64,000 nt of DNA from Candidatus Levybacteria bacterium RIFCSPLOWO2_02_FULL_37_18 (GCA_001784115.1 MFPD01000005.1:7074-71073); one strand, 5' to 3'; positions 12,301 through 33,747 are shown, counted from the stretch's first letter. Numbers and translations are program-made. Notes: a model not told the origin generated them from the letters alone.

Positions 12301-14001
12301 TGTGTTATTAACCGAATCATGCCAAACCATAATAAAGTGCCAGGTAGATGTTGAAGGACTTCCAAAACTGCTTGCTTCTAAGTTGGTTTGCGATCCCCCA
12401 GAAGGAAAAACTACAAACCTGAAACGATCACTTGATTGAAGATATTGAATGGCAAAATCATAACCAGATCCCGTGTCATTCCACTTACCTACCGCAACAT
12501 GATCGGTTGATTTGGTATCCATATAAACCCATGCTGAAATTGTAAAATCGATATCTCCAGTTGATACAGTTGAATTATCAGCAATACTCAAAGTTTCAGT
12601 ATTTGCAGAAGTAAACTGACCAGCATTACCAAACTTGCCCGGATTAGCTGTGACAGTATTGTTGTCAGTAAGAGTATTACCGTTTCCTGAAGAATCAGAT
12701 CTATTTCCAGATGCTTCATCCATCTTCCAGTAGCCTACTAATCCATCAGAAAGACTAGATTGCTTCGCTCCGCTCGCAATGACGCCGCCGCCGGAGTTGA
12801 AAGAGGAGCCTTCATTATTTGCTCTTGAGTTATAATCAGCCTTGATCTGGTCAGCAGTACGGGCATAGGGGTAGATTTTAGGTTCGTCCACGAAGCCCTT
12901 AAATGGAAAGACTACATTCGAATCATTTTCATTACCATCATTTCGATTTGATCCAATACGTAGCTTACCATTGTTCGAAACGTTCCTAACTGTAAGCCCT
13001 GTCGATGTTTGTCGTAACTTTCCATCAAGGTAAATAAGTATGCTTGTTCCTGTGCGAACACCAGTAATTTGATGCCAATTCGAATCATTAACTGAGTTAG
13101 CACCAATACCAGAATAACTATCACTTACATTTGCTGTATATAAGATAATGTCATTGTTCGTATCGATATATACAGAGTAATCTCCGTTCGTATAAGAAGT
13201 AGTGTCTTTTTTATTAATAAGATCTTGTCTAGTGCCAAAGTTACCTGTTCTTCTAAACCAAAGTTGAATAGTGAAATCTCCAGTGCCAAGGTCTAGACTG
13301 TTCGCGTCATTTACCTTTACAAAATCATCCGTACCATCAAACAGTAAGCATTTACCAGAGATACACATATCCTCAGTCTGCCAGGTGGGACTATTAGTCA
13401 AGGTGCCGTCGTTGTTGTTAGTTGTTGAATCTTGGGCTGTTGTGCCGGTGCCGTCGTCAAACTTCCAGTAAGCTACAGGAGAAGTTGCTTTTTCTTCAGA
13501 TCCAGCAGAAGCTGCTCCACCTGAGGGGGTAGTGGTAGCATCTGAGAAATCTGCAGCTTGGGTGCCATTTGCAGCAGAAGGGTTACCATAATACATGTAG
13601 ATTAAATTAGAGCCATTAATAATTGATGGCATTAAAACATCAAAATCAGTTGAGGCATCGTCACAAGGTCCTGAGGCTGAGTCCAAGTAATATTTGAGTA
13701 TCTTACCATTAGGATCAGTAAATCTCACATCTCCACAATCATCCTGAAAAGTAGTTGGTGAACCAGTTGTATCAATATCAAACTCTACTTGAGTAGGTGT
13801 TGAAACAGCAGCATTATGAGTAAAAGTTACAGCTTTTCTAAAAGCCCAATTATCATCAAACCAGGCAGCAGAGACCTTTTTAGGATTTAAAAATATAAAC
13901 CCAATCCCAGTACCGGATAAAATAAGGAAACCAATTAAATAGGTAATGAGAGCTCTCTTGGTTAATTTAATGAAACCTTGTTGAAATTGCCTTTTTGTCA
14001 T
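9364..14001 (-). CDS. giant surface protein (about 1545 aa from ATG 14001; ORF open to 14166): N-terminal TM anchor then at least 6 LamG/Concanavalin-A-like lectin repeats; contains in-frame palindromic element and an internal tandem duplication
   Basis: repeated (A/G)YWK(M/F)DE...DSSGNGNTGT...W.PGKFG Laminin_G_3-type modules; TM LITYLIGFLILSGTGIGFIFL; ATGACA start lies inside a TGTCAT element. Confidence 0.8.
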   Translation of the reverse strand: MTKRQFQQGFIKLTKRALITYLIGFLILSGTGIGFIFLNPKKVSAAWFDDNWAFRKAVTFTHNAAVSTPTQVEFDIDTTGSPTTFQDDCGDVRFTDPNGKILKYYLDSASGPCDDASTDFDVLMPSIINGSNLIYMYYGNPSAANGTQAADFSDATTTPSGGAASAGSEEKATSPVAYWKFDDGTGTTAQDSTTNNNDGTLTNSPTWQTEDMCISGKCLLFDGTDDFVKVNDANSLDLGTGDFTIQLWFRRTGNFGTRQDLINKKDTTSYTNGDYSVYIDTNNDIILYTANVSDSYSGIGANSVNDSNWHQITGVRTGTSILIYLDGKLRQTSTGLTVRNVSNNGKLRIGSNRNDGNENDSNVVFPFKGFVDEPKIYPYARTADQIKADYNSRANNEGSSFNSGGGVIASGAKQSSLSDGLVGYWKMDEASGNRSDSSGNGNTLTDNNTVTANPGKFGNAGQFTSANTETLSIADNSTVSTGDIDFTISAWVYMDTKSTDHVAVGKWNDTGSGYDFAIQYLQSSDRFRFVVFPSGGSQTNLEASSFGSPSTSTWHFIMVWHDSVNNTLNIQVNNGTVDSLAHTTGVRDSGSAFVIGGLNTSQQPWNGRIEEVRFYKKVLSAAERTSLYNFAPGPVGYWKMDEKTGTSANDSSGNANTGTITGATWKPGKFGASLDYDGTDDVNTITNASAIDLNTNSAYTFEAWVYADSAGEGSGGQIYQKGATTFLRVDTLSGANLDVEAQLDLATTDATLNISAPITTNTWHHIAVTYEDDSDDEITIYIDGVNRGSSTDGSGAPAADTNNLLIGGTTTDNFDGKIDDFKMYAYARTQKQVIEDMGAGHPGVYAGSSGGSTTGGARGGPVAYWKFDEGADNRCSGGTNDVCNSGSNGTTLDGTSTASRSLSGKFDKALDFDGSDDVVTITNSSAIDLNTTSAYTFSAWVNTDTDGEGDVGQIFQKGTTTYLRVDSQSGSNLDVQASFDLATTDATLNISAPITTASWNHILLVYEDDSDDEISIYINGILRGTSTDGSGAPAADTNNLLIGGTTTANFDGKIDEFKVYSYPLTADEVKLEYNRGSNLVLGALSDNSTYQPNAANQEYCIPGDSTTCTAPVGRWDFEEKSGSSVIDTSGNGYTGTWNGTGTPHWKPGKHGSAGNFNGTDDFVSITPTTLLGSAFTIESWIKISSTSIQTFFSQGLTDFFVEGVLKLQTNSNGTKTIISANAPPLNVWVHVAVTKSGTGAGATKLYINGVQDDNGTATDAPNTGTTRIGNESANGRFVNGQIDEVRVYNYARSAAQVAWDYNRGAPVAYYKMDECQGTVINDSSGNSNTGTLTVGSGGSETTIGNCPTSSTAWGNGVTGKRNYSLNFDGTDDYVSMANASILNPGNNTSYGAWFRTTNATTYQQILNKQHSAGNVSPHWGVVYRLYVNTNNLVCQVFNGSAHVTATATGVISSNNTWYHGLCTLDGSTLKVFLDGKQVASASFSGTVPTSDTGNLLIGARTITTTSYMSGQIDDARIYNYALTATQIKLLMNDGAVRFGPNTGAP
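10830..11990. repeat. intragenic tandem duplication (two copies of about 700 bp, about 75% nt identity) inside the LamG giant gene
   Basis: 10830-11275 aligns with 11536-11985; encoded blocks YDGTDDVNTITNASAIDLNT...NLLIGGTTTDNFDGKIDDFK and FDGSDDVVTITNSSAIDLNT...NLLIGGTTTANFDGKIDEFK. Confidence 0.8.
12757..12783. repeat. half palindromic element (agattgcttcgctccgctcgcaatgac) in frame in the giant LamG gene (encodes VIASGAKQSS)
   Basis: CTCGCAATGAC terminus plus GATTGCTTCG inner arm. Confidence 0.7.
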
Positions 14002-14124
14002 TCCCGACCTGATCGGGAATCTATATAAATATTTGTATGGATTCCGTGTCAAGCACGGAATGACAAGGAATCTAGATTGCTTCGCTAGCGCTCGGAATGA
14101 CAGAAAGATTACTCGGAATGACAT
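13997..14124. repeat. cluster of 3-4 TGTCAT...ATGACA palindromic elements (CATTCCCG/CGGGAATG, CGGAATGAC variants) between giant genes; supplies the ATGACA start of the LamG gene
   Basis: gtcattcccgacctgatcgggaatc..., cggaatgacaag, gattgcttcgctagcgctcggaatgacag, ctcggaatgacatt. Confidence 0.7.
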
Positions 14125-14190
14125 TGTTTTAACCCTTGACAAAAGTTTGTTCATAAAATTGACCAATTTATATTGGTAGTTAAAATAGAA

Positions 14191-17100
14191 TTAATTCACT
14201 ATCCACCAATTAACTTTCAACTTTTCCTCAAGAGCTTCGGGGATGCGGATTTCGAAAGTGTTAGTATTTATTTTTTGGGTTGAAACTGCTGCTGGCGTTG
14301 TGTCGGGCGTGGCAAAAATTAGGGAGTTGGGAGTAAGAGCGGTTGTTTTGATTTGGACAGATGTAAGGCCTGCGCTAATGGTAGCAATTCCGGCGCTTGC
14401 AGAGAGAGCATCTGATGTATCAATCTGTATCTTTACAGTTGTTATAATACCTTTTGTGAACAGATTTCCATTGGTGTCAATAGCCAGGGTGTTAAGGGTT
14501 AAGGGTCCGGTAAGGGTAGATATATTTGCGTTTAGACCATCTATGGAAAGCAATCCTGCTTGAACTGTTCCTGTTATGCCAACATTTGAAAGAAGTGTCC
14601 TGCCCAAAACAGTCAGCGTACCGGAGAGGGTGGCAGATTCAGAAAACTCAGAACGACTCAGAAGGTCAGAAATATCTGATGATCTGATATTCAGACTACC
14701 TGATTCACTGGATATCTGAGTATTCCGAGTATTCTGAATTGCCGTAAGGCTTGCGACTTTTTCTTCCAGGCTTGCAAGGCGGACAAGCATACTGCTTATG
14801 TCATTGCGAGGAGCGGAAACACCTCCGAGGTGTGCTTCTGCTGGAACTTCACCTCGGAGGTGAGCGCTATTACTCGCAGTGACAGAGAAGGTGTCGGATA
14901 GTGCGATATCGAGATCCCCGCTTCCGGTGAATTGAATATTCGGATCATACCACGATACTCCCAAAAGCGTATTCACCCGATCTTTACCTTCCGAATCTTC
15001 CAGCGCTCTTCCCACCACCCATCCTTTTTTAGTGGCTTTTTTTGCAACTCCGGGTGTAGAACTATATGTCAAAAAATCTCTTGGTTTTAATGTTCCGGAC
15101 TGGGTTGATACTTTAACTCGTAATTGTCCTGTCAGCCCGACCAGAACATAATTATCATCATTTTCATGCCCGCCGGCTCCGACAAATCCGGCCTGGTCAG
15201 AAAAAATACCGAGTATTTGATTTTCTTTCTCCGAACACTTAACTGCCCCGCCATCTTCATCCAAGCAAATGAGATCCCCGGGACTCATATTTGTGTCAAT
15301 TAGTGTTCCATCGCTATTTGTGGTATTTCGTGTTTTTCTAAAGTATTCTGCAAAGTCTCCGCCGTTGGTGTCGTATGTCACACTATTTTGGGTTCCATTT
15401 CCCCGTATTTTTCCTGCGATACTGCTGTTGCCGGTTAAGAATGCCACAAAATAATTTGTGGTTGTTGGAGTAAGGGTTCCGACTTTAAGCGCTAAGACAT
15501 CCGCATCTGAATTAACAGAAGAATTGGAAATAAAAGCAGAAACAGTGGCATTATTTGTTCCTTCTGCCAAAATGGCATAATTGGTTGTCGCTCCGGAAGC
15601 AGAAGCGTACAAAGCAACATTAGTCGATGTCGTTCCAGTGTTTGTTACATCAGAGTAGAGGCCATAAGCGGTGTGGGAGGCATTAGCATTTGCACCAGAA
15701 CGAGATAGATTGATTAACTTTGAATTGCCTGATGCTCCTCCTGTTGTAGCAGTAGAGGCGATATCCAGTCCTGTTCCAGTGGTTAATCCATCAACAGATA
15801 AAGACATAGTATTAGCAGTGGATACTGAATCTGCAGTTAAACTCCAGGGAGAAGTAGTAGTACCTGTGAATGTTTGAGAATATGTTCCTTGTCCTGAGGT
15901 TAAAGCTACAGCTCCAATTGATAATAATCCATGGGTAGTGCCTGTTGCTCCAGTTAAAGCAGAAGTTGTTGAAGTATCAGACGCACCATTACCACCTCCA
16001 CCTCCGGATGCCACAGAAGCAGTATTTCCAGCTGAACCATTACCATTTCCACAGCCAGTTGTACCAGAACCAGCAGGATTACCAGCACCTCCACCACCAC
16101 CATAACTATAGGTAACACAACTACCACCATTACCTCCAGCTCCCACAGTGGTATTAGCACTGCCCCCTGTGACAGTCACAGTACCAGCAGTCACTGTACC
16201 CCCATTTAACCAAGCTGTGCCTCCAGCTCCTCCGCCTCCGGGAGCAGCCCCGGCTCCACCACCACCTTGGTTGACACCACCATCTCCAGCTCCTCCATCA
16301 CTACCGGCATTTCCTCCCACAGTCACGGTTCCTGAATTGGAGATAGTACCTGAGGTGTTTATCACAATAATACCTCCACCAGCTCCACCAGCACCACCTG
16401 TACCACCTGCGCCACCGGTTGAGCTGGCATAACCCTTACCCCCACCTGCGCCACCCCCACCCCCACCCCCACCAGATCCCATTACTATTCTTAAGGTAAT
16501 GGTGGGAGTGCCAATAGCTGAAGCTGCGCTACCTGCAGAGCCAATTGCTCCAGTGCCACCAGCAACAGCAGGAGAATTTCCTCCATTAACTGCACTTCCA
16601 GCACCCCCGTCTGTTCCAGCAGTAGCATTACCTCCGCCTGCTCCCATGCCGGCAGTTCCACCAGCACCTGATCCTCCAAGACCGCAGCCTCCTCCTGACC
16701 CTCCATCAATACCGCCGGCATTAGTGGCCACCCCACCTCCGCCTCCTGAAGCTGGTCCATTCCCACTGCTGCCGGCAGTTCCTGATCCGGCAGTTCTGCT
16801 CCCTCCGCACTCAGTTGTTCCTCCCGCTCCTCCGGCCCCGCCTGATCCTCCTGTATATCCTTTTCCAGCCATAGTGACAGTTCCGCCTGGGTTAATGGTA
16901 ACAGTGCCATTTGTCTCAAACCATAATATTCCTCCTACTCCTGTTGAGGTTGACCAGGCTGGGGCTGTTAATGTTCCAGTACCTGTGACTGTGACTGATG
17001 AATATTGAGGAACTCTGACTACCTGGAAACAGGCAGTATCAGAAGAGTTACATCTGTTAACTGTGGTTTGGGTATAGGTGTTATCTAAATTGCTGTCTAC

Positions 17101-20100
17101 TGTTATTTGAGTGGCGGAATCGACAGAGCTAATATACTTTTTATCGTATAATCCTACATTAGCAGTAGTTCCATGTTTCATCTGCATGATTAAGACTATG
17201 TCATTGGCAGTAAGTCCTGTGGTTGAGGCAACAGTCACTGCTTTTTGACCTGAGGAAACAGTCCCGGAAGTAGCTCCTGTGGTAGCTGTGGAATTAATAG
17301 TGGTTGACCCAGACACAGATAAGGCTCCATCAGAGTTGATCCCCGATGGAGGATCAGCTTCAGTTGTATCAATTCTTCCAACATTAGTTCCAGTTGAGTT
17401 TTGGAAATAGATTCCGGAATTATTACCATCACCAGAGGTAGAACCAGTTGCCCTGACATTCGTGTTGTTATTAATTCCAGCAAAGTAATTATTTGCTAAA
17501 AGCGCACCATTATTAGTAAGCCGAAGTTGTGTAACTCCTGATGAACTTGCTGTTAGTAAATCGCCTGTTGTATTGTCTATCTGAAAAGCTGCCCATGATG
17601 TTCGGGCAGAGATACTTGCAACAGGCTGGGTACCGGACTGAGCAGAACCGTACATGTGGAATGTTGCAGCTGAGGTTGATGTTCCGCCAATTAAAAGATC
17701 CTGGGTGACGATGCTAGGCGATAGAGTCCCGCTTGCTTGATTCCAAAGGTTTAATAATTGTGAACCATTGGAATAAATTGTCTGGCCGTAGATATTTCTA
17801 AATTGCACGCTTGAAGTTCCCAAATCAGTTACGTTGGTAGTATTGGGTCTGACAACTCCAGCTGCTCCAGCATTTGAGGGGTTAAAAAGTATATCACCGG
17901 TGGTTGAACCGCCAATGGTTAGGGTGTTGTTTGCTGTTGTCTGGATAGAACTTGCGCCTGTTCTAAAATTAAGACTTGATGAGACTGATGCAGCTCCGGC
18001 TACATCGAGTGCTGCTGTTGGAACTCCTGTCTGGATTCCTAAATTCCCTGCATTTGTCAAAACAAGCCGGGTTGTGCCAGAAGCTGAGGCTGTGAATATG
18101 TCTGTGCTTTCGGTCTGGTTAAAAATTGCCAAAGCTTTTCCTAACACGCCGCCTGCTTCATTAACACCTGAAGTTAAATAAAATGTGCCGATATTAGCAG
18201 GCGGGTAAGCGCCATTCCCGCCAACAACAAGTTGCGCAGCAATTGTTGCAGCTTTATTTATCACAAAACTTTCTGCACTTACGATTACACTGCCTTTATT
18301 GTAAGCAGCCAAAGTTAAATCAGTTGAATTAAATACTTCGCCTGCTTGGATATAAAGGGGTGCTTGGGATTTGATAAAATTAGAAGTTGGGTTTGTAAAT
18401 ACAAGATCATACGCAAGACTTACATCTCCGGGAGCTGTTTCAGATAATGGTAGGGAAGTGGTAATACCTGTTTCTGATATGGCAAAAATAGATGAGCCCG
18501 AATCCAGAATATTAAATAAGTTGCCTGTGGTTGTGCCATTTGAGCCAATATTTAAAGCAAACAAATCTCCGGTTGCAGTTGTTGAAGACCCCGGCGACCA
18601 GTCGATATTAACAAATGTTCCCACCCCTGCTGTTCCGGTAAGCGATGTAGCAGTTGAGCGAATATCAAGAAGGGTTCCTGTAGTTAAGGTATTTGAAGAG
18701 CCTGTTGAGAGCTGGGCAAGCTTGCCTGTGGTTAATGATGAAGAACTTTCGTAAATTCCTGTTCCTGATGTTAAGGAATTTCCGGTAAAGACCCATGAGC
18801 CTGAAGTGGTTGTTCCGGTTGCATTTGAGGAAGTAAATGTCTGAGCGCCTGTGCCTGATGTAAAATTCAAAGCAGTAGCAGAGGTTGAATTACCAATTGT
18901 AATATTTCTTTGCGTTGCATCATTGCCAATATTAATGGTGCCTGTTGTTGTACCGCCAATGGTAAGAGTATTCATCTGAGTGGTTTGAATGGTGCCTGTC
19001 CCATTTCTAAAGTTGAGTGAACTGGAAATGCTGGCTGTGCCTGCTACATCCAACATGGCAGTGGGAAGAGGTACATTTCCAATTCCAACATTTCCGTTGT
19101 TTCGGATAACAAACTGCGGGACACCGGATGAGGAAGCGGTAAAGAGTGGACCAACACCTCTGTTGTCAATTTGAAATCCTGCAAAAGAGGTATTGGCTGA
19201 TACAGAAGCTGCTGGTTGTGTGCCACTTTGAGCTACTCCATATACGTGGAATTGAGCGGATGAAGAGGAGGTTCCGCCAATTAATAAATCAAGAGTGTTA
19301 TTTCTTTGGTTTAAAGCGCCGCTTGTAATATCAAACACACCACCGCCGTAAGTTGGCGAAATAACGCTTCCTTGCCAGACGCCTGTACTAATTGTTCCAA
19401 CAGAAGTCAAGGATGAACTTACAACAGCAGTTCCCAAAGTAGTTGCAGAGAGAACATCAGTTGCGTTAATTTGATAGGTTTTGCCGGTTGATAAGTTCAT
19501 GGTGCCGGTATTTAGTACTGTTCCCGAACCATTTAAAGGAGAAAGGGTAATATTGCCGGTTGTACTTCCTCCAATAGTTAGAGTATTGTTTCTTACAGAT
19601 TGGATTGAACCATCTCCCGAAAGAACCAATGCCTGTCCTGAAGCGTTTTGTGCTGACACAGATGCGGTAGGAGTGCCTGTTCCATTAAGATTTAACACTG
19701 CAAATTTTGAAGAGGAAGTTGCATTGCTGCCAAGTAAAAGATCTGCGGTTGTTTGGGTGGTAAAAAGCGAGCCACTGCCAATTTGCCAAAATCCAACAGT
19801 TCCTGAAGGCCCGGAAATGAGATTACCATTCAAATACAGATTTCGCCACATTAAAGCAGATGAGCCAAGATCAACTGCATTATTGGTAGATGGTGCTACA
19901 AAAGAAGCTGAAGTGCCATTGGCAGGAGCAAGCAAAATATTTCCGGTTGAACCACCGCCAATGGTAAGGGTTTGATTTTTGGTTGTCTGGATATTTCCTG
20001 CTGCATTTAAGGTTAGATCTCCGGAAACAGATGCTGTGGGAGTGCCACTATTGACATTGATGAAAGCAAATTTTGCTGAAGATGAAGAAGTGCCGCCGAT

Positions 20101-21558
20101 TAACAGATCAACAGTAGTATTGATTTGGTAAATTGCTCCATTTGACTGAGTCCACCAATTGATACCTCCGGATGTTGAGCCAAGCTGTGTCCAGGAGGAG
20201 CCGTTGCAATAATAGTATTGGGTCATAGGCCCGTCATAATAGAATCTTCCGGCTGTAGAAGAAGAGCAAGTGCCGGCGTCAGATTGAATACTCGGAGCCA
20301 GAGAAAGAGTGGCAGAAATACTGGCTGATCCGGCGATGTCTAATTTAAAACTGGAATCTGCGGTTGATTTTCCTAAAGCCAGGTTGTCGGTTGAAGTGGT
20401 TAAGGCAACGGAAGTTCCATTGTCTGTAAATCCTGAAATATTTAAATCAGAACTGCTGGGAGTAAAGGTGAGTTTGTTATTGGAAGTATCAATTGCAATA
20501 GCCAAACCTGATCCTGCTGCAAACGTAATGGTGTCTTTTGAATTGCCTGCATCAAAACTTGAGGAGCCTACAGTAATGGTTTTAAATACTTTTAAAGAAG
20601 AGCCGGTATCGGCGTTGGTAATTTTTAATCCATCAACGGTGATTCCATCTCCTGCCTCAAGTTTTAAGTCTCCTGTTTTGCTGCCTAACGAGATTACTCC
20701 GGTATTAGTGATTTTAGGACTTTGTCCGGAAGAGATTGAGACGCCAGTGCCTGCAGTTAGACTGTAGATAATGTTACCCGCAGTGAGTTTGCCTGAACCC
20801 AGATTTATATCTTTGTTGTCAGTTGAAATATTGCTGTTAAACTTTGCTTCGCCTTCAACTGTGAGAGTGTCGGCTAAAACAGAAGGCACATTAACTTTGA
20901 AGGTGATATTTTTAGGAATATCGGTCGCAGCCAGGACCCCGCTTTTACGTTCCAAGGCCTGGTCTTGCGAGGCTAGACCAGGGTGAGATAGTTCGGGCAG
21001 CCCTACTTCCAAAACTCCGGCTCGGTTGAGTGCGCCAACAAGCGAGGTGGAAAAGAGGAGCACAGCAAAGCCCATGATTATTCTTTTCTGAATAACTGTC
21101 AACGCTATGTCATTGCGAGGAATCTTTATTATCGAATCAAGTGTGTTTGCAGTGAAAAGAGAAGATTTTTTGGCGAGATTTGATATGGTTTGATATTCTT
21201 TGGATATTCTTGGATAGAGATTTTTGAGAATCTGATGAATGTCATTTTTAACTTGTTTGAGAAACTTACTTCTTGATTCATTTCGTTCACTCGAAGAAGA
21301 ACTAGTGGTGATCTCTTGAGATTGCTTCACCCCTTCGGGGTTCGCAATTACAAGAGAGGGAGATGTAGTGACAGTTGTCCCCCCCCCCAAGCTATAAACA
21401 CCTGTGAACTCCTGTACTTGTTTTAATGAATACCGTCTTTGGTTTCCGGGAGTTCTCCTGGGTGTTAATACTCCGTTTTTATCATACCGCCTTAGCGTGG
21501 TAATGGATACCCGAAGTAATTTGGCAGCCTCTTGAATAGTTAGTAATGTGTCGTCCAT
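14191..21558 (-). CDS. giant surface protein (2455 aa as one ORF): N-terminal Xis/MerR-type HTH (aa 1-55), G9-encoded GGG, signal/TM (MGFAVLLFSTSLVGA at 21075), long beta-rich repeat region, Gly-rich block, conserved DFAEYFRK domain, C-terminal domain ending NWWIVN
   Basis: continuous ORF; HTH LTIQEAAKLLRVSITTLRRYDKNGVLTPRRTPGNQRRYS; repeats DLLIGGTSSSSA.F.V; paralogous blocks shared with 21676..26985. Confidence 0.75.
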   Translation of the reverse strand: MDDTLLTIQEAAKLLRVSITTLRRYDKNGVLTPRRTPGNQRRYSLKQVQEFTGVYSLGGGTTVTTSPSLVIANPEGVKQSQEITTSSSSSERNESRSKFLKQVKNDIHQILKNLYPRISKEYQTISNLAKKSSLFTANTLDSIIKIPRNDIALTVIQKRIIMGFAVLLFSTSLVGALNRAGVLEVGLPELSHPGLASQDQALERKSGVLAATDIPKNITFKVNVPSVLADTLTVEGEAKFNSNISTDNKDINLGSGKLTAGNIIYSLTAGTGVSISSGQSPKITNTGVISLGSKTGDLKLEAGDGITVDGLKITNADTGSSLKVFKTITVGSSSFDAGNSKDTITFAAGSGLAIAIDTSNNKLTFTPSSSDLNISGFTDNGTSVALTTSTDNLALGKSTADSSFKLDIAGSASISATLSLAPSIQSDAGTCSSSTAGRFYYDGPMTQYYYCNGSSWTQLGSTSGGINWWTQSNGAIYQINTTVDLLIGGTSSSSAKFAFINVNSGTPTASVSGDLTLNAAGNIQTTKNQTLTIGGGSTGNILLAPANGTSASFVAPSTNNAVDLGSSALMWRNLYLNGNLISGPSGTVGFWQIGSGSLFTTQTTADLLLGSNATSSSKFAVLNLNGTGTPTASVSAQNASGQALVLSGDGSIQSVRNNTLTIGGSTTGNITLSPLNGSGTVLNTGTMNLSTGKTYQINATDVLSATTLGTAVVSSSLTSVGTISTGVWQGSVISPTYGGGVFDITSGALNQRNNTLDLLIGGTSSSSAQFHVYGVAQSGTQPAASVSANTSFAGFQIDNRGVGPLFTASSSGVPQFVIRNNGNVGIGNVPLPTAMLDVAGTASISSSLNFRNGTGTIQTTQMNTLTIGGTTTGTINIGNDATQRNITIGNSTSATALNFTSGTGAQTFTSSNATGTTTSGSWVFTGNSLTSGTGIYESSSSLTTGKLAQLSTGSSNTLTTGTLLDIRSTATSLTGTAGVGTFVNIDWSPGSSTTATGDLFALNIGSNGTTTGNLFNILDSGSSIFAISETGITTSLPLSETAPGDVSLAYDLVFTNPTSNFIKSQAPLYIQAGEVFNSTDLTLAAYNKGSVIVSAESFVINKAATIAAQLVVGGNGAYPPANIGTFYLTSGVNEAGGVLGKALAIFNQTESTDIFTASASGTTRLVLTNAGNLGIQTGVPTAALDVAGAASVSSSLNFRTGASSIQTTANNTLTIGGSTTGDILFNPSNAGAAGVVRPNTTNVTDLGTSSVQFRNIYGQTIYSNGSQLLNLWNQASGTLSPSIVTQDLLIGGTSTSAATFHMYGSAQSGTQPVASISARTSWAAFQIDNTTGDLLTASSSGVTQLRLTNNGALLANNYFAGINNNTNVRATGSTSGDGNNSGIYFQNSTGTNVGRIDTTEADPPSGINSDGALSVSGSTTINSTATTGATSGTVSSGQKAVTVASTTGLTANDIVLIMQMKHGTTANVGLYDKKYISSVDSATQITVDSNLDNTYTQTTVNRCNSSDTACFQVVRVPQYSSVTVTGTGTLTAPAWSTSTGVGGILWFETNGTVTINPGGTVTMAGKGYTGGSGGAGGAGGTTECGGSRTAGSGTAGSSGNGPASGGGGGVATNAGGIDGGSGGGCGLGGSGAGGTAGMGAGGGNATAGTDGGAGSAVNGGNSPAVAGGTGAIGSAGSAASAIGTPTITLRIVMGSGGGGGGGGAGGGKGYASSTGGAGGTGGAGGAGGGIIVINTSGTISNSGTVTVGGNAGSDGGAGDGGVNQGGGGAGAAPGGGGAGGTAWLNGGTVTAGTVTVTGGSANTTVGAGGNGGSCVTYSYGGGGGAGNPAGSGTTGCGNGNGSAGNTASVASGGGGGNGASDTSTTSALTGATGTTHGLLSIGAVALTSGQGTYSQTFTGTTTSPWSLTADSVSTANTMSLSVDGLTTGTGLDIASTATTGGASGNSKLINLSRSGANANASHTAYGLYSDVTNTGTTSTNVALYASASGATTNYAILAEGTNNATVSAFISNSSVNSDADVLALKVGTLTPTTTNYFVAFLTGNSSIAGKIRGNGTQNSVTYDTNGGDFAEYFRKTRNTTNSDGTLIDTNMSPGDLICLDEDGGAVKCSEKENQILGIFSDQAGFVGAGGHENDDNYVLVGLTGQLRVKVSTQSGTLKPRDFLTYSSTPGVAKKATKKGWVVGRALEDSEGKDRVNTLLGVSWYDPNIQFTGSGDLDIALSDTFSVTASNSAHLRGEVPAEAHLGGVSAPRNDISSMLVRLASLEEKVASLTAIQNTRNTQISSESGSLNIRSSDISDLLSRSEFSESATLSGTLTVLGRTLLSNVGITGTVQAGLLSIDGLNANISTLTGPLTLNTLAIDTNGNLFTKGIITTVKIQIDTSDALSASAGIATISAGLTSVQIKTTALTPNSLIFATPDTTPAAVSTQKINTNTFEIRIPEALEEKLKVNWWIVN
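14800..14883. repeat. palindromic element (gtcattgcgag...ctcgcagtgac) in frame in giant gene 2 (encodes HLRGEVPAEAHLGGVSAPRND)
   Basis: GTCATTGCGAG terminus with inner cctccgagg / cctcggagg palindrome. Confidence 0.7.
16000..16950. repeat. Gly-rich low-complexity coding block (GGxGGxGG...) with local GC far above the window average, inside giant gene 2
   Basis: runs of ggtgg / ggagg / ccacc codons; plus-strand ORFs here (16148..16432, 16499..17008, Pro-rich) are mirror-strand artefacts. Confidence 0.7.
21379..21387. repeat. homopolymeric tract C9 (G9 on the coding strand) encoding GGG, at the 5' end of giant gene 2 between the HTH and the signal peptide
   Basis: gtccccccccaag on the plus strand. 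Confidence 0.9.
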
Positions 21559-21675
21559 TGGGCAGGATTGAACCTATTTGGATAGATCTGTATAGGTTTA
21601 CTATTAAACTATGAAGACTTTTCACAGACTTGTCAAGAGGCAAATAATCTTATCATAAACTTATCAGGAGATTAA

Positions 21676-24600
21676 TTAATTTACTATTAACCAATTAAAG
21701 GGAATATCAGTTTTGGGTTGGTTGTTTACTCCCACAGTAAATGATTCATTTGGTACTTGGCGAAGGAGATACAAAACTTCATTATTTGTGTTGCCGTTTG
21801 GCGTGATATAAATAAGTGATTTTTCCGTCACCAAACTATTTCTAATGGTGAGTTCGGATTGGTATGCACTTATGGTAGCAATTCCTGCAGAGCCTGTGGC
21901 AATGATTTCCGAACTTGACAGAGCTAAAGCTTTACTGATCGGGCTTAGATTAAGCTTAGAAAATGTGCCGGAGCCTGAGGCTACTACATTTCCTTGTTCA
22001 CTCACTGCAAAAACAGCAGAGCCGGAAGCATTGGTAACAGTAAGCGTTTTTTCAAATGTAGCATTGCCTTTTACTTGCATATTTCCTTCGATATCAAACG
22101 TAATTAATCCGCCAAGGAAGTTAATACCTCCTTGTCTTAGCGGTTGGATTTCCAGACTGCTATCTAGCACATTAATAGAGTTATCTGTTAAAACAAGGCC
22201 GGTATTTGGGCTGCCGATACTAACAGTTCCTGTAAACGAGGCATCGGTAAAGGTGGAGGGACCGAGAGAAATAAAGCCATAATTAAACTTCGGAAAACTC
22301 AGAATACTCGGAGAATCAGATGAATTCAGATTTTTCAGATAATCAGATACGCTAAGGTTGTCTGCAATAATTGTTCCGGCGCGTAGAACTCCTCCAATGC
22401 TTGCATTACCACTATTGTTAAATTGTTCTATTGTTAAATTGTTAAATTGTCCAGATTGAGCTGTAAGTTGGCCTGAGAACGAGGCGTTGCCTGTACTATC
22501 TATAGTAGCAACAGCGCTGCCGGAGGCGTTTTGGACCTCCACGATAATGTCATTGCGAGGAGACACGTCTGACGTGTTCGACGAAGCAATCCCTTGAGAT
22601 TGCTTCGCTCCGCTCGCAATGACGAGTCTTCCGTTCACCACTACCGAATCAGAAGACAAGGGAGAAATGGTATCGGTATGGATTTGGTCAACGTAAGCAA
22701 TGGGAGAAACAACCTTAGTATCTAGTATTAAGTATTTAGTATTTAGTATATTCGTATTAAGCGTATCAATAGTTCCATTGGCAGCAGTGAGTGTTTGAGT
22801 TGCGAGCTCGGAAGTTTTGATAGAGCCTTCTACTGCGAGTTCTTTGGCATGAATGTAGCCGGCTTCTAGATTTGCAATAACAGCCTTACTAAAAGTTCCA
22901 ATACGATTTATAAGTTGGTCTGTTGCCTTGTTGTTTAAAGAAAATGATATGGTTTGGTCCTGTTGTGTTATAGTTTGGGGAACAGAACCAAATGTCGGAT
23001 CAAGATCAATCGAGAGATTACCGGTGTCAGTAAGATAAACATCGGGGTCGTGAAATGAAGGCTGGAGGATCGTGTTCACGATGCAGATATTATTGTCATT
23101 GTGAGGAGTACCGAGCTTGTCGAAGGATGACGAAGCAATTCCATCTGAAGTAGATTGCTTCACTTCGTTCGCAATGACAGAACAAGAAGGTTCTGAAAGG
23201 GCTCGGCCCACCACTCTTCCTGCCCGGGTTGCTTTCATGGCAACTCCAGGAACAGAACTGTTAGTAAGATAGTCTCCGGGTTTTATGTCTCCGCTCTCGG
23301 TCGAAACTTTTAAAGGCAACTGGCCAAGGAGGCCGACTAAAACATAGTTTGGGTCATTGTCATGGTCGCTTCCGCCGACAAAACCGGCTCTGTCTGAGAC
23401 AATTCCGAGGATATTATTGTTTGTTTGATCACACTTACCAACACCGCCGTCTTCTGCCAGACAGACAAGGTCACCGGGTTCAAAAGATTGCTTCGTCCTC
23501 CACGCTTCGCTCTGAGTCCTCGCAATGACATTACTTTTTCTAAAGTATTCTGCAAAGTCAACGCCGGTTGTGGAGTATTTGACTCCCCCTCCAAAACTTT
23601 GGATTTTTCCCTGAATCTGGCCGTTTCCATCCAGAAACGTAGTAAAATAATTTGTGTTTGATCCTGTTGTAAAACCTAATTTTAAAGCCAAGGCAACAGA
23701 ATTAGCACCTGTATCGGTATTTTCAATCATGGCTACTGCAGTTGCAGATTGACTATCGGAAACATGCAGTTTATAGGCAGGATTTGTGGTACCAATTCCA
23801 ACATTGCCGGTTGTACCCGAGACTAAAAATTTAGCAGCAGCAGTTGAATTTCCGCCAACCAGCAGATCATCAGTTATATTTGTCGGCGCAACTGTTCCAA
23901 GTGATCGTAAAAACGGCGGAGTCTGCCAGGTTGGAACACCGCCTAAGACAGTCAAAACTTGATTTGACGAGCCAATACTTCTTTTTGAAAGCGAAGTGGG
24001 ATTGGAAGATGCGGCATATAAAATATCGCCGGTTGAGTAGGTGGTTAGACCTGTTCCGCCATAATTTGCTTTTATTGATGTTGCCTGCCATGTGCCTGTT
24101 GAAATAGTTCCAACTTGTGTTAGAGAAGAATTTACAACAGCAGTTCCCAAAGTAGTTGCAGAGAGAACATCAGTTGCGTTAATTTGATAGGTTTTGCCGG
24201 AAGACAAGTTCATTGTGCCGGTATTTAGCACAGTGCCCGAACCATTGAGAGGGGAAAGAGTAATATTTCCGGTTGTATTTCCGCCGATAGTTAGGCTATT
24301 ATTCCCTGTTGTTTGAATACTTCCTGCTCCGGTTCTAAAACTTAAAGAACCGGATACAGAGGCACTTCCTGCTATATCAAGAAATGCAGAAGGGGTAGAA
24401 GTGCCAAAACCAATATTTCCTCCTTGAGTAATAACAAGATAGGAATTGGGGTTTGGCGTTGTTCCATTTACGCCAATTTGCAAATTGCCGGAAGTTGTAG
24501 AAATAGAAACAGCATAATCGAGTGTTTGTCCGCAGCCATCAGTAGTTGTGCATTGAACATGCAAAGAAGAAGGACCTACATATAGACTTTTAAATCGGGC

Positions 24601-26985
24601 AGAAGAGGATGCGCCCAAGTCAGTAACATTATCGGTTTGCGGGCCAAAATAGCCTGTGGCTTGAGAGTTTTTGGGATTGACAAGAATATTGCCGGTATTT
24701 GTTCCGCCAAGTGTGAGCGTTTGGTTATTGGTAGTTTGAATAAGGCCAGATACGTTATCAAAGGTAAAGTTGCCTTTGGAAATAATATTGCCGGATAAAC
24801 CTTCGATTCTCAGTTTTGATGAGTCAGACGCGGTTCCTCCAAGTATAAGATCATCGGTTGAATTCAAAGGCGAAATTACCTGGCTGTTTCTTTGCCACCA
24901 GCCCTGGGTTCCGGAAATAAGAGTGGGAAATACATTTTGAGTATAAATATTTTTCCAAGAAGCAAGAGGAGAGCCGATAGTATAAAGTCCGGTGTCAACA
25001 GGCGTAATATTTCCTTTGATATCAAGCGCATTTTGGGGAGCTGCAGTACCAATGCCAACCCAGCCGTCGCTGTCAATAACAAACTTGGTTGCGCCTGAGC
25101 TTGAAGCGGTAATAAGATCACCGGAGCTATTATTATTCACAATAAAAGAGGCAACCGCTGATTCAGTCGCGTTGATAATTACTTTATCGTCTATTTCAAC
25201 TGCTCCAGGGTTAAATTCTCCATTCATGGAGCTATTTATAATTGGTTTTTGAATATCAACAGAGCCAAACCCGTCAGGAGAAAGCTCGATATTGCCATTT
25301 GAACCCGGCACCGTGTTGAGAATTACAGACTTTCCGGAAAGTGTGAAAGTGCCGCCTGTGGCTTGAAATGTGGGAGAAGCATTTTGTCCGATGACTAAAT
25401 TTCCCGATGAGTTAAGAGACAGAACAACATTTTTTGCATCACCTTGGGTAATGGGCGAAAGTCCATCAAGAGTAAGAGCGTTTTGAGAGAATTGGGTGGT
25501 TGGGATTTGCTGACGGGGAGATAATTCTTCATCCGAGCCGACCTGAATGCCTAAAAAAAGCTTTTCGTTTTCAGAAAAAATAGATTCGGAAAGAGGGTTA
25601 TTTATTCCAAGTACAACAGAAAATGTTCCGTCAGAATTGGGACTTATGGTATGAACTTCTTTCCAAATTAAAGAATTTGAGAAATTGGTTGGGTGATTAT
25701 ACAAAGAAAAAGTTACATCTTTTGGGGAATTGATTGGATTATTGAGCCGATCCAGGAGTTTGCCTGTAAAAAAAAGAGTTTTTGGAGAAATATGAGTAGA
25801 AAGAATGGCTTTTGGCGGCGAATGTAAAAAATCAGTCTTATCGAAAAAGAATAATGTGCCACTCGTAACAATAATTATTAAAATGGAAAAATGAATATAG
25901 CTTGAAATTGGTGAAGCATGATATTGTTTGTACCATTTTGGTCTTTTGTGTTTGAGAAAAACAATTAATTTTTTATGGAAAGGAAGATAAGAAGTAGAGA
26001 TGGGCGCGTAAAAACTTTTGGGAATATTAGGAATATATGAAGATGATTGTTTTTGAAACAGTTTTAGAAAAGAGCTTTGTTTTTTTGCTTGATTGGCTTT
26101 TGCGAATTTTATTTTTTTTCTTAAAAAAAGAGATTCTGTCTGATTCACTAAAGCAGCCAGAGGAATGATAAAAAGATATTCCAGTATATAGTTTGATGCT
26201 TTAAGTAGTTTTTGGAATAGGCGGATGGGAGGGAAGCGAGAAAATAAATTGTCATTGCGAGGGTTTGAAAAACCCGAAGCAATCTCGAGATTGCTTCTCT
26301 CACTTTGTTCGCTCGCAATGACAGTGGGTTTATATTTTACATTCGATTCTAGGTCATCTACAGGTTTGATTATGCCTTCTTTTTCTATCCAGGCAAGATA
26401 TTTTCTTAGTGATGAGAGTTTTCTGTTGATAGATTTTGGAGCAAGCTTGGCTTCGTGAAGCAGTCTGTATTTGTATTCGTTAAAAAGAGAAGAGTCAATT
26501 TTTCTTAAGACATCTTGTTCTTTTAGGTTCCATGCATGGATTGCGCCGGTTACACGCTCTGCCCATTTTAAAAACTGGAGCACATCGTTAGTATAGTTTT
26601 TTATAGTAAGATTTGATGCGTTATAGACATACAAGTAGTTTTTAAATTCTTTTATGTGCCATATGTCTTCCTTTTTTGGAGAGGCGGGTAGAGATTTGTT
26701 AAAAGGATCTTTTAGAACAAGTCCTTCTAGTTTTAAGAAGCGAAAAAAGCTTCTCAAGGAAGACATATGTCTTTTAACTGTTTTAGGCGAAAGAGAAGTT
26801 TTTTCTTTTTTATAGATTTCGATAATGTGAGGAGTTATTTCCGGGGGGTTGAAGGTTTTATGAAAGGACTCTTGAAACCAACGGATAAACTGTCCTACAT
26901 CTGCCTTATAGTTTTTGACAGTTATTTTTGAAGGCTGTTTTTTCTGAGACTTCAAGAAAAGAATAAACGGTTGTAATAGATTCAT
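21676..26985 (-). CDS. giant surface protein (1769 aa): two tandem phage-integrase N-terminal SAM-like (core-binding) domains, in-frame palindromic element, TM helix (YIHFSILIIIVTSGTLFFF), giant ectodomain, conserved DFAEYFRK domain, C-terminal domain ending NWLIVN
   Basis: SAM-like pattern ITVKNYKADVGQFIRWF...LSPKTVKRHMSSLRSFFRFLKLEGLV and LTIKNYTNDVLQFLKW...APKSINRKLSSLRKYLAWIEKEGII; no stop between these and the TM/ectodomain. Confidence 0.75.
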   Translation of the reverse strand: MNLLQPFILFLKSQKKQPSKITVKNYKADVGQFIRWFQESFHKTFNPPEITPHIIEIYKKEKTSLSPKTVKRHMSSLRSFFRFLKLEGLVLKDPFNKSLPASPKKEDIWHIKEFKNYLYVYNASNLTIKNYTNDVLQFLKWAERVTGAIHAWNLKEQDVLRKIDSSLFNEYKYRLLHEAKLAPKSINRKLSSLRKYLAWIEKEGIIKPVDDLESNVKYKPTVIASEQSERSNLEIASGFSNPRNDNLFSRFPPIRLFQKLLKASNYILEYLFIIPLAALVNQTESLFLRKKIKFAKANQAKKQSSFLKLFQKQSSSYIPNIPKSFYAPISTSYLPFHKKLIVFLKHKRPKWYKQYHASPISSYIHFSILIIIVTSGTLFFFDKTDFLHSPPKAILSTHISPKTLFFTGKLLDRLNNPINSPKDVTFSLYNHPTNFSNSLIWKEVHTISPNSDGTFSVVLGINNPLSESIFSENEKLFLGIQVGSDEELSPRQQIPTTQFSQNALTLDGLSPITQGDAKNVVLSLNSSGNLVIGQNASPTFQATGGTFTLSGKSVILNTVPGSNGNIELSPDGFGSVDIQKPIINSSMNGEFNPGAVEIDDKVIINATESAVASFIVNNNSSGDLITASSSGATKFVIDSDGWVGIGTAAPQNALDIKGNITPVDTGLYTIGSPLASWKNIYTQNVFPTLISGTQGWWQRNSQVISPLNSTDDLILGGTASDSSKLRIEGLSGNIISKGNFTFDNVSGLIQTTNNQTLTLGGTNTGNILVNPKNSQATGYFGPQTDNVTDLGASSSARFKSLYVGPSSLHVQCTTTDGCGQTLDYAVSISTTSGNLQIGVNGTTPNPNSYLVITQGGNIGFGTSTPSAFLDIAGSASVSGSLSFRTGAGSIQTTGNNSLTIGGNTTGNITLSPLNGSGTVLNTGTMNLSSGKTYQINATDVLSATTLGTAVVNSSLTQVGTISTGTWQATSIKANYGGTGLTTYSTGDILYAASSNPTSLSKRSIGSSNQVLTVLGGVPTWQTPPFLRSLGTVAPTNITDDLLVGGNSTAAAKFLVSGTTGNVGIGTTNPAYKLHVSDSQSATAVAMIENTDTGANSVALALKLGFTTGSNTNYFTTFLDGNGQIQGKIQSFGGGVKYSTTGVDFAEYFRKSNVIARTQSEAWRTKQSFEPGDLVCLAEDGGVGKCDQTNNNILGIVSDRAGFVGGSDHDNDPNYVLVGLLGQLPLKVSTESGDIKPGDYLTNSSVPGVAMKATRAGRVVGRALSEPSCSVIANEVKQSTSDGIASSSFDKLGTPHNDNNICIVNTILQPSFHDPDVYLTDTGNLSIDLDPTFGSVPQTITQQDQTISFSLNNKATDQLINRIGTFSKAVIANLEAGYIHAKELAVEGSIKTSELATQTLTAANGTIDTLNTNILNTKYLILDTKVVSPIAYVDQIHTDTISPLSSDSVVVNGRLVIASGAKQSQGIASSNTSDVSPRNDIIVEVQNASGSAVATIDSTGNASFSGQLTAQSGQFNNLTIEQFNNSGNASIGGVLRAGTIIADNLSVSDYLKNLNSSDSPSILSFPKFNYGFISLGPSTFTDASFTGTVSIGSPNTGLVLTDNSINVLDSSLEIQPLRQGGINFLGGLITFDIEGNMQVKGNATFEKTLTVTNASGSAVFAVSEQGNVVASGSGTFSKLNLSPISKALALSSSEIIATGSAGIATISAYQSELTIRNSLVTEKSLIYITPNGNTNNEVLYLLRQVPNESFTVGVNNQPKTDIPFNWLIVN
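22549..22623. repeat. palindromic element (gtcattgcgag...ctcgcaatgac) in frame in giant gene 3 (VIASGAKQSQGIASSNTSDVSPRND)
   Basis: both termini present, inner gaagcaatc / gattgcttc arms. Confidence 0.8.
23096..23179. repeat. palindromic element (gtcattgtgag...cgcaatgac) in frame in giant gene 3
   Basis: termini plus inner gaagcaatt / agattgcttc arms. Confidence 0.75.
23487..23529. repeat. half palindromic element (gattgcttcgtcctccacgcttcgctctgagtcctcgcaatgac), identical to the right half of the intergenic copy at 27646-27692
   Basis: exact 43-nt identity with 27646..27692. Confidence 0.8.
26252..26323. repeat. palindromic element in frame between the SAM-like domains and the TM of giant gene 3 (VIASEQSERSNLEIASGFSNPRND)
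   Basis: gtcattgcgag...gaagcaatctcgagattgcttc...ctcgcaatgac. Confidence 0.8.
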
Positions 26986-27754: not shown

Positions 27755-28705
27755 TTATTGATGTTTTTTGATCCTTTTTATAACAAAAAGAATCAGAATA
27801 AAAATACCAACAATTTCTCCGGTTTCTTTTAAAGGCAAGACAACGAATTGGACGCTTCGGGTAAATGTAGGGCCATGTTTGGACAAGGCAAGGGTAAGAC
27901 GCGCCGTATACGGTCCCAGGAGAAAGCCGTTTTGCCAAGACAATTTTGTCAGGTCACCCTCTGTGACTAAAAGTTTTTCCGAGTCTATGAGAATAGGTGA
28001 TTGTTTGATTCCTATTGCTCCAACTGTTTGAGAAAACATATTTTTGATCGTGATTATACCTTGAGGAAGTATCGCGTGACTGCCCGTGTTTCTAACTCTG
28101 AGCGTAAACGGAATCGGGCCTTTCTGAGAGAAGAAAGGACCGGAAAACTCTTCTATGGTGCCTTTCGGAGAAGAAGAAATGTTTTGAATTGAAAGTAGTA
28201 TATGGCTTGCAATTATTACTTGTGCTTTTGTAATAGTTTCTTTTTTCTCAAAAGTACTCGGTTCTGGATTAGATATAAAAAGAATAGAAAAATAATAGTC
28301 TGATTCTGTTTGTTCGGTAGGAATGTGGAGGGAAAAGGTAAGCGTTTTCTTTTGAAACGGTCCGAGTAATATCTTGTTGGTTGGCTCGTCGTCTTCTAAA
28401 ATGGTAACTTTTTTTAGAATATCCGGGTCTGGCTTTTTGTCAAAGTTCTCAAGATAGGATACATTTCCTTGACTGTCTTTGGCCCGAAATGGTTTGAGAA
28501 GAATTTCAAATTCCATTGGCTGCTCGGTACGGTTTTCTATACTAAGAGGCGTTTTGATAGTGTTGGGTGCTTTGGTTTGAATGGTAATAGAAGGCGGAGA
28601 AACTCTGAGCGATACCGAAGTTGCATATGCCTTGTTTAAAGGCAAAAGTGACATCCATGTCATTCCGAGCAAAGCGAAGAATCTTTTTAAATTTAAATTT
28701 TTCAT
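27755..28705 (-). CDS. secreted protein with N-terminal signal peptide and C-terminal TM anchor (IVGIFILILFVIKRIKKHQ); possible surface-assembly accessory protein
   Basis: signal MKNLNLKRFFALLGMTWMSLLPLNKAYA; part of the signal (RFFALLGMT) is encoded by a TGTCAT half-element at 28659-28683. Confidence 0.6.
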   Translation of the reverse strand: MKNLNLKRFFALLGMTWMSLLPLNKAYATSVSLRVSPPSITIQTKAPNTIKTPLSIENRTEQPMEFEILLKPFRAKDSQGNVSYLENFDKKPDPDILKKVTILEDDEPTNKILLGPFQKKTLTFSLHIPTEQTESDYYFSILFISNPEPSTFEKKETITKAQVIIASHILLSIQNISSSPKGTIEEFSGPFFSQKGPIPFTLRVRNTGSHAILPQGIITIKNMFSQTVGAIGIKQSPILIDSEKLLVTEGDLTKLSWQNGFLLGPYTARLTLALSKHGPTFTRSVQFVVLPLKETGEIVGIFILILFVIKRIKKHQ

Positions 28706-28709
28706 AAAT

Positions 28710-28857
28710 CTATTTGCTCGGGTCGATACAGAAAATTTCTTCGCGCCCGGCTTGGTTCAACTTTTACGTCTTCTGATCCACGTTACGGCTGTATTCCTTG
28801 GATGAATTACAGTTTATTCGCACATGCAAAATTTTGTATCTCCCCTCGCCTTAAACA
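28710..28857. repeat. 148-bp element, copy A (about 85% identical to 33748..33894)
   Basis: shared blocks ttcgcgcccggcttggttcaa, cttctgatccacgt, ttattcgcacatgc.aaatttt. Confidence 0.8.
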
Positions 28858-28868
28858 GTATAACAATT

Positions 28869-33734: not shown

Positions 33735-33747
33735 TGTACTAAATATG

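Follow-up and report, generated by a model that had tools for sequence, protein, structure and literature searches.

An in-frame G10 tract in the gene of a predicted giant membrane protein with a MerR-type head in Candidatus Levybacteria

Introduction

Does a run of guanines near the start of a giant gene act as a switch that joins a DNA-binding domain to a surface protein and separates it again, or is it an incidental part of one native gene? The question is raised by a stretch of 64,000 nucleotides from Candidatus Levybacteria bacterium RIFCSPLOWO2_02_FULL_37_18 (GCA_001784115.1 MFPD01000005.1:7074-71073), hereafter the window. Its minus strand carries two neighbouring genes for giant proteins, gene 1 and gene 2, and gene 2 opens with a helix–turn–helix (HTH) domain that is followed by a long poly-G tract. 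A reading made from the sequence alone had seen in this arrangement a candidate phase-variable switch fusing an excisionase/MerR-type HTH to an adhesin gene. It had also considered that the tract could be a homopolymer sequencing error, creating or hiding a two-gene arrangement.

We found that the HTH and the giant surface protein are encoded by one native gene, not by a fusion made by the homopolymer. The tract is a G10; it is real and in frame, and it encodes Gly-Gly-Gly at its present length. The claim of a fusion switch thereby proves weak, and the family to which the protein belongs, together with its conserved control region, is the more interesting result. The coordinates of all features are collected in Table 1.

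Results

The HTH and the giant ectodomain lie in one open reading frame

Gene 2 is a minus-strand open reading frame (ORF) of 2,455 amino acids (aa) that starts at the ATG at 21558. The tract reads TTG GGG GGG GGG ACA, in frame, two codons past the HTH domain. The sequence-only reading had placed nine guanines at 21379-21387, encoding three glycines. The in-frame poly-G coding for Gly58-60 stands, while the length had to be corrected to ten, at 21379-21388. Translation is open across G10, and the HTH is, as had been proposed, in frame with the giant gene through the tract.

The tract was compared across 11 assemblies, namely scaffold L001 and ten contigs reached via the neighbouring gene, which come from JGI, NCBI and ENA records and represent at least three BioSamples and several haplotypes. 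All 11 read GGTGTTTATAGCTT-G10-ACAACTGTCAC, in frame, with gene 2 called from the HTH start as one gene. The one-gene call is of 2,454/2,455 aa in four independent assemblies, and in five further assemblies one gene with the same start extends to the contig end. The window comes from a Candidatus Levybacteria population of which many assemblies exist. Identity of the contigs to the window is 99.8% or higher, and several shared single-nucleotide polymorphisms and indels set them apart from it, for example 21520 A>G, the loss of 3 bp at 16572-16574 and an indel of 7 bp at 29663-29669. Given that assemblies with such variants all carry G10, the tract length is no assembly accident. At the consensus level, no tract-length polymorphism was seen in the 11 assemblies and several haplotypes. 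A scan of metagenome contigs with the tract flanks and a variable gap returned nothing, even though the identical sequence exists in JGI contigs; the empty result therefore reflects the content of the collection, not an absence of the locus.

The N-terminal domain is a MerR-type winged HTH, as had been recognised from the match of the first 55 aa to the excisionase/MerR family. Residues 5-55 scored above the gathering thresholds of three Pfam models: MerR (PF00376; E 2.3e-12, 46.9 bits against a cutoff of 28.2), MerR_1 (PF13411; E 4.2e-9, 36.8 bits against 21.6, covering profile positions 2-50 of 69 only) and HTH_17 (E 6.9e-8, 33.1 bits against 27). The peptide LTIQEAAKLL...QVQEF corresponds exactly to residues 6-51. 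The MerR recognition and wing residues (TLRR...RTxGxxRRY) are conserved, and the closest sequences in the PDB, those of SoxR (2zhg), BldC (6amk/6ama) and GlnR, have the wing motif RTxGxxRRY in common with it. An AlphaFold2 model built from four sequences, with a mean predicted local distance difference test score (pLDDT) of 43, is confident for the HTH only (pLDDT ~83-89 over residues 1-50). Matches to the NCBIfam models HspR, BldC and excise are confined to the HTH and score far under their cutoffs. Both the C-terminal coiled-coil dimerisation helix and the effector-binding domain of MerR proteins are absent; the HTH gives way to a disordered linker, a transmembrane (TM) helix and the giant ectodomain. 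No OmpR/PhoB-type winged HTH was detected with Pfam, which returned only the three families above. The HTH was also considered as an excisionase (Xis) or recombination directionality factor. This assignment was rejected, as the HTH sits in a 2,455-aa protein and adjoins an integrase-like gene devoid of a catalytic domain.

Between the HTH and the membrane, residues 54-93 of the linker are Ser/Thr-rich, hold the Gly triplet and are predicted by AlphaFold2 to be disordered, with a long helix following at residues 89-143 and another at residues 151-179. The peptide MGFAVLLFSTSLVGA forms the core of the protein's only strongly hydrophobic segment (residues 160-178; Kyte-Doolittle 19-mer score 1.95). 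Because the N-side flank of this segment is rich in K/R (...VIQKR), we read it as an internal signal-anchor. MGFAVLL had been taken for a signal peptide. It belongs instead to this TM anchor, and a start at Met162 would have no charged n-region. Nor does the protein begin with a Sec-type cleavable signal peptide, the hydrophobic core not falling within the first ~30 residues. We infer a single-pass membrane protein, with the HTH and a linker of ~100 aa inside and a fibre- or repeat-like part of ~2,270 aa outside.

Were the homopolymer length an error of sequencing or assembly, the real arrangement would be a small HTH/excisionase gene and a separately initiated adhesin gene that starts at MGFAVLL. 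A database fragment identical to the window protein at 100%, P0001, does begin at MGFAVLL. That start is explained by a gap of ten undetermined bases (N10) immediately upstream in its scaffold, L001, and the same scaffold carries G10. Moreover, the 11 assemblies agree on G10, the linker is open for 101 codons in the fused frame only (both alternative frames stop 9-25 codons past the tract), Met162 falls within the TM helix, and a single ORF is present in every relative examined. An error at this position is thus extremely improbable; with G10 in 11/11 assemblies and the family uniformly of one gene, neither a created nor a hidden two-gene arrangement is borne out.

An independent start at Met162 is neither needed nor supported. 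A promoter-like site at 21074-21102 was considered as its driver and rejected as a chance match, as its -10 element overlaps the Met162 ATG and hence cannot serve it. Searching for a Shine-Dalgarno (SD) sequence ahead of a separate adhesin start, as had been suggested, is uninformative, because genes of the window generally lack such motifs: they are nearly absent within 25 nt upstream of ~34 window ORFs. This organism apparently initiates translation without depending on SD pairing.

The ectodomain opens with a conserved N-proximal module, VNVPS...LTAxNVxYSLTAGxGIS...ITNTGV. It matched no domain in Pfam, PHROG or NCBIfam, and no tandem repeats were found within the 2,455-aa gene. With no annotation from PHROGs or NCBIfam for this region, the label 'adhesin' is an assumption. 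Gene 2 is paralogous to gene 1, and the two proteins share the C-terminal ending ...NW[LW]IVN. A 176-bp segment of gene 1 (24128-24303) and gene 2 (19415-19590) is 89% identical. One assembly (L085) has 20 substitutions packed into 67 bp of gene 2 (16873-16939), not limited to A positions, and another (L086) breaks around window positions 16660-16980, in the same region. The substitution cluster could represent repeat exchange or a local hypervariable patch.

The layout is shared by a large family

A first homologue search returned three proteins with 33-43% identity, each with an HTH, a linker of variable length, a TM helix and the same conserved ectodomain module. The same arrangement occupies a single ORF, 1,425 aa or longer, on a Levyibacteriota genome contig (MerR_1 6e-14). 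Scanning genome contigs with an alignment that contained the HTH was swamped by generic MerR HTHs and gave L003 as the sole full-length relative. A profile search of 1.84 billion cluster representatives retrieved 170 hits at E<=1e-30. Among the top 150 of these 170, 117 begin with the HTH and 109 show the HTH followed by a TM helix, with lengths up to 5,762 aa. To avoid HTH bias, 36 metagenome loci were fetched by the ectodomain module alone, using a four-sequence alignment. The HTH lies in the same reading frame as the ectodomain in 24/36 loci (23 stop-free and one, L112, with a single stop), the rest being more distant, HTH-less members.

In none of the 36 metagenome loci is the giant ORF immediately preceded by a stand-alone HTH gene. 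Comparison of orthologous loci, proposed as a way to reveal a two-gene operon, yielded a single ORF in every relative examined and in no case an HTH gene and an adhesin gene one after the other. What had been interpreted as a candidate fusion is the native one-ORF layout of 109/150 cluster representatives and 24/36 loci. This distribution indicates that the family ancestrally combined all four parts, the HTH, the linker, the TM helix and the giant ectodomain, within one ORF. The layout is common to more than 100 sequence clusters; few carry source labels, and these are mostly Patescibacteria, the Candidate Phyla Radiation (CPR). The window protein has all the features by which the family is defined, namely an N-terminal MerR-type HTH, one TM helix and the conserved module in one ORF.

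Membrane features are also consistent across the family. Of 110 members, 71 have more K/R on the N-side of the TM helix than on its C-side and 18 have fewer, which fits the positive-inside rule, and a second strongly hydrophobic segment occurs in only one. Linkers have a median length of 56 aa (range 14-173). In public databases these proteins appear as 'MerR family DNA-binding transcriptional regulator', 'excisionase family DNA binding protein' or 'helix-turn-helix domain-containing protein', and those with an organism label are 1,195-5,517 aa long.

Several variations were recorded within the family. Some members carry 2-8 tandem copies of the MerR-type HTH (P0024, P0076 and P0158; also P0018, P0020 and others), placed ahead of the TM helix where one is present. 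Small soluble proteins with 2-4 HTH copies (P0121, P0122, P0139 and P0157) fall in the same homology group. In L112 (frame 2), a homologue with two HTHs, the single in-frame stop lies in the conserved ...SN*GLLS motif, at a position occupied by T or S in relatives. Loci L099 and L100 are 99.5% identical, with indels amounting to 35 gap positions, and the giant ORF ends early in L099 (3551-6799) and reaches the locus end in L100.

An unusual tract with a predicted slip outcome

G10 is the longest homopolymer of the window, in which the others are A/T runs of at most 8 and one G7 at 52153-52159, and it is the sole G/C run of at least 8 in 64 kb (genome GC 39.5%). A G9 pattern is expected 0.18 times, and two of 100 dinucleotide-preserving shuffles reached the observed two overlapping hits. 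GGG is the rarest Gly codon in the window (12.7%), and 19 other poly-Gly runs in window ORFs avoid long G runs by using mixed codons. The tract is thus unusual for a 64-kb window (p ~0.02), but not overwhelmingly so over an assumed genome of ~1 Mb. Its length means that it must be a mutational hot spot.

The consequences of a slip were derived in silico. A G9 tract leads to the stop TAA at 21348-21350 after 69 aa, and a G11 tract to the stop TAG at 21302-21304 after 85 aa. More broadly, G9 and G12 terminate after 69-70 aa and G8 and G11 after 84-85 aa, with the HTH intact in each. The tract occupies codons 57-60 of 2,455, and a frameshift there removes ~97% of the protein. The peptide across the junction is ...EFTGVYSLGGGTTVTTSPSLVIANPEGVK in frame, and GGGQLSLHLPLL and GGGDNCHYISLSCNCEPR are predicted for the shifted frames. 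Two points of the sequence-only reading are therefore upheld: a slip of one G would uncouple the HTH from the giant ORF, and a G10 of this length, in the 5' part of the ORF and with a frame-dependent outcome, is formally a candidate for slipped-strand switching. A slip of one base either way would yield a soluble, HTH-only peptide of 69-85 aa, with loss of the giant protein and probably reduced expression of the downstream gene, which encodes LamG domains. This LamG gene begins 25 nt past the gene 2 stop and is probably co-transcribed with gene 2, so that it would feel polarity from a gene 2 frameshift.

Contingency, programmed slippage or an incidental run

Such an outcome would suit an adaptive contingency locus, in which G10 slips often, ON cells display the tethered HTH and the fibre, and OFF cells contain free HTH, no giant protein and less of the LamG protein. 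The fusion would still be native, and the benefit would be stochastic variation of a surface exposed to hosts or phages. The rarity of the tract in a 39.5% GC genome, its low chance expectation and anomalous codon choice, the loss of nearly the whole giant surface protein upon a frameshift and the survival of the entire HTH in both shifted frames all argue for this reading. Coding homopolymers are, in addition, an established route to reversible gene inactivation, as illustrated by the G/C tracts of Campylobacter (PMC2831843, PMC8355987).

Several results speak against it. The in-frame length is shared by the 11/11 assemblies and by all distinguishable haplotypes, the window holds one such tract in 64 kb with no sign of a phasome, and relatives have no comparable tract at any position. 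In 38 related loci (249 kb) no G/C run of at least 9 was found and no long run occurs in the HTH-TM linker, and GGG is present in none of 110 family linkers, from which we conclude that the tract is lineage-specific. The four predicted slip products had no exact match in a collection of 15 billion proteins, which is weak evidence because the collection also lacks the full-length proteins of >2,000 aa. We therefore hold an adaptive contingency locus to be possible, yet tentative.

A frameshifted G run was also noted elsewhere in the family. In a Logan assembly (L002, 10879-10884), a homologue is split by a frameshift at a G6, reading ..DTDLGG* and continuing in another frame as ADLGSASYRFNNLW, and a G5 restores the frame. 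This G6 lies much further into the gene than G10, and it is a single case in a rough assembly. Either an assembly error or a genuine pseudogene or OFF state may underlie the split.

Slippage could instead be programmed, with RNA polymerase or the ribosome slipping on G10 so that one allele gives both the tethered protein and free HTH in a fixed ratio. The position of the tract at the HTH boundary, with both shifted frames ending soon after, is compatible with this idea, and the soluble proteins with 2-4 HTH copies mentioned above make a functional free HTH plausible. The productive transcriptional slippage sites known so far are, however, mostly A/T runs. Neither a stimulatory structure nor a conserved ORF in a shifted frame was found, the out-of-frame tails look arbitrary, and the tract is absent from relatives. 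These observations make programmed slippage very unlikely.

We consider it rather probable that G10 is an incidental, lineage-specific run coding for Gly3 that is tolerated in a disordered linker, with no demonstrated switch, because the tract is fixed in frame in every sampled population and absent from relatives. Several points weigh against this preference. Minority length variants are invisible in consensus assemblies, and the 11 assemblies stem from one nearly clonal population (at least 99.8% identity) and for this reason are not strong independent samples. A chance origin is unlikely (p ~0.02 per window), the tract uses three consecutive copies of the rarest Gly codon, and it far exceeds any G/C run in the 249 kb of relatives. 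It also lies exactly at a domain boundary, near the 5' end of a surface-protein gene in a low-GC genome, the classic setting of a contingency locus. Furthermore, DNA binding, membrane topology and a regulatory role of the HTH are properties that we only infer.

A conserved control region precedes the HTH start

The DNA upstream of the giant gene is conserved among relatives (L094, L095, L101-L108, L110, L114 and L003; window 21556-21700), although the proteins share only 30-45% identity. The order in relatives is 2-3 tandem copies of TGATATGATT (period 11), CAGCC-TTGACA, a 17-nt spacer, TAGTAAT, a leader and GCTGCCC(N)ATG. Their leader contains direct repeats of TGGACAAA, an inverted repeat, or both; an inverted repeat or hairpin is present at the leader position of nearly all relatives, with a differing sequence. 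The leader had no match in Rfam. A separate direct repeat in the promoter spacer was considered and rejected, as it is a variant of the conserved spacer CTGTGAAAA. The start context CTGCCC(N)ATG marks the HTH start of 15 loci that bear the HTH and is missing from all loci that lack it, which points to the ATG at 21558 as the start of gene 2.

The conserved, repeat-bearing promoter region could be an operator for the protein's own HTH. The tethered HTH would probably bind DNA at the membrane and, in an arrangement like that of ToxR/CadC-type one-component regulators, make gene control depend on the state of the giant ectodomain, possibly by acting on the conserved repeats at its own promoter. 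The upstream paralogue lends support to a DNA-directed role of the cytoplasmic head, since gene 1 combines a homologous ectodomain with a head that is also of a DNA-binding type. This head consists of two core-binding domains of tyrosine recombinases (XerC/D-like), without the catalytic domain. It is common to at least 50 relatives, those with source names being mostly 'site-specific integrase, partial' and otherwise 'site-specific recombinase XerD'.

A broader proposal would unite these elements. The family would comprise outside-in devices, each with a DNA-binding head (1-8 MerR-type HTHs, or two recombinase core-binding domains in the paralogue) joined through one TM helix to a fibre thousands of residues long, and G10 would serve in this lineage as a stochastic switch between tethered and free heads. 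Contact with a host cell or a surface might then be passed to DNA, either via autoregulation at the repeat-bearing promoter or by release of the head. We regard this combined proposal as doubtful.

Neighbouring genes

Other genes near the giant genes were also surveyed. Three small envelope-protein genes lie upstream at 27755-30130 (minus strand). One of their products, 316 aa long, matches WxLIP_PGBD weakly and carries a signal at its N-terminus and a TM helix at its C-terminus. These genes might be related to the Pam pilus chaperone/pilin genes of CPR bacteria (bioRxiv 10.64898/2026.03.03.709456). Small genes for 23S rRNA intervening-sequence proteins (four-helix bundle) and a GIY-YIG gene adjoin clusters of giant genes, both in the window (8459-9318, minus strand) and in L002, a distant relative (2140-2478 and 8529-8903). 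Further along, window positions 30186-38151 encode LeuRS, ComEA, ComEC (split into Competence and Lactamase_B ORFs), an IS200-like Y1 transposase and a histidine kinase. DNA-uptake machinery thus adjoins the cluster of surface-protein genes.

Table 1. Positions of the features of the giant-gene locus, counted from the first letter of the window.
Feature	Position	Strand	Basis or remark
Upstream paralogue, gene 1 (1,769 aa)	21676..26985	-	Two Phage_int_SAM_1 core-binding domains, TM 363-381, giant ectodomain
Tandem 11-bp direct repeats just upstream of -35, TGATAAGTTTA / TGATAAGATTA; candidate regulator-binding site	21644..21665	-	Counterpart of the relatives' TGATATGATT x2-3
Sigma-70-like promoter: TTGACA (21631-21636), 17-nt spacer, CATAGT (21608-21613)	21608..21636	-	Aligns with TTGACA-N17-TAGTAAT of distant relatives
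Leader inverted repeat, AACCTAT-N14-ATAGGTT	21571..21598	-	
Conserved start context, CTGCCCAATG	21556..21565	-	
Gene 2, single ORF: cytoplasmic MerR-type HTH, linker, one TM helix, ~2,270-aa ectodomain	14191..21558	-	Stop codon 14191-14193
MerR/BldC/excisionase-type winged HTH, residues 5-55	21394..21546	-	Pfam MerR, MerR_1, HTH_17
Cytoplasmic linker, residues 56-159	21082..21393	-	Frame analysis and AlphaFold2
G10 homopolymer on the coding strand (C10 on the plus strand)	21379..21388	-	Last base of Leu57 plus Gly58-60
Single TM helix (signal-anchor), residues 160-178, IIMGFAVLLFSTSLVGALN	21025..21081	-	Hydrophobicity, AlphaFold2
In-frame ATG, Met162 (MGFAVLL), inside the TM helix	21073..21075	-	Not supported as an independent start
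Extracellular region, residues 179-2455 (predicted)	14194..21024	-	
Downstream LamG gene (~1,545-1,600 aa)	9364..14166	-	TM 73-91, DUF2341, six LamG domains

Significance and comparison with known systems

Life attached to host cells is assumed for CPR bacteria, and to our knowledge almost nothing is known of how they sense or regulate this contact. The conserved heads, predicted to be cytoplasmic and DNA-binding, and the conserved promoter and leader provide a testable candidate link between contact and gene control. Public names such as 'MerR family regulator', 'excisionase' and 'site-specific integrase, partial' hide the nature of these proteins. The poly-G tract, for its part, is a cheap test case for simple-sequence phase variation in CPR bacteria, given the existing time-series reads from the source aquifer. 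If it proved to be a switch, CPR bacteria would gain their first described contingency locus; if there is no phase variation, it reduces to correctly assembled Gly-Gly-Gly codons in a disordered linker. In the limited library of literature that was searched, no report of phase variation in CPR bacteria or of this protein architecture was found, and the Pam pilus preprint (bioRxiv 10.64898/2026.03.03.709456) makes no mention of the architecture.

Compared with the poly-G/C contingency loci of Campylobacter, Neisseria, Haemophilus and Helicobacter, the locus is alike in having a G/C run of at least 8 towards the 5' end of an ORF for a surface protein, in a genome of low GC content, where a change of one base truncates the product. 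It differs in showing no length polymorphism in 11 consensus assemblies, no tract in homologues and one tract in 64 kb. In other words, tract length and frame dependence agree with such loci, whereas polymorphism and recurrence do not.

Among regulators, the HTH resembles BldC and excisionase-like minimal MerR proteins, and the HTHs of HspR, SoxR and GlnR, in being a winged HTH of ~50 aa with no coiled-coil or effector domain and with the RTxGxxRRY wing. The known proteins of this kind are small and soluble, whereas here the domain forms the N-terminus of a predicted giant membrane protein and scores far under the NCBIfam cutoffs. BldC binds direct repeats as head-to-tail multimers, and the tandem direct repeats of the family promoters are compatible with a BldC-like binding mode. 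RodZ, made up of an HTH, a TM helix and a periplasmic domain, offers another parallel, with the same bitopic layout and a cytoplasmic HTH. Its HTH is of the Xre type, binds MreB and is not known to bind DNA; by analogy, the HTH described here could be a protein-binding module.

Within the locus itself, the gene 1 paralogue family is alike in its homologous ectodomain, which ends in the same way at the C-terminus, in its one TM helix and in its DNA-binding type of head on the cytoplasmic side, and differs in that its head is made of two Phage_int_SAM_1 domains with no catalytic domain and that gene 1 has no homopolymer. The membrane-bound one-component regulators of the ToxR/CadC type are alike in their predicted bitopic, N-in topology, with a cytoplasmic N-terminal winged HTH, one TM helix and an extracytoplasmic C-terminus. 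In contrast to them, the family presented here has a MerR-type instead of an OmpR-type HTH, in some relatives in 2-8 copies, and in place of a compact sensor it carries 1,000-5,700 aa of fibre-like repeats.

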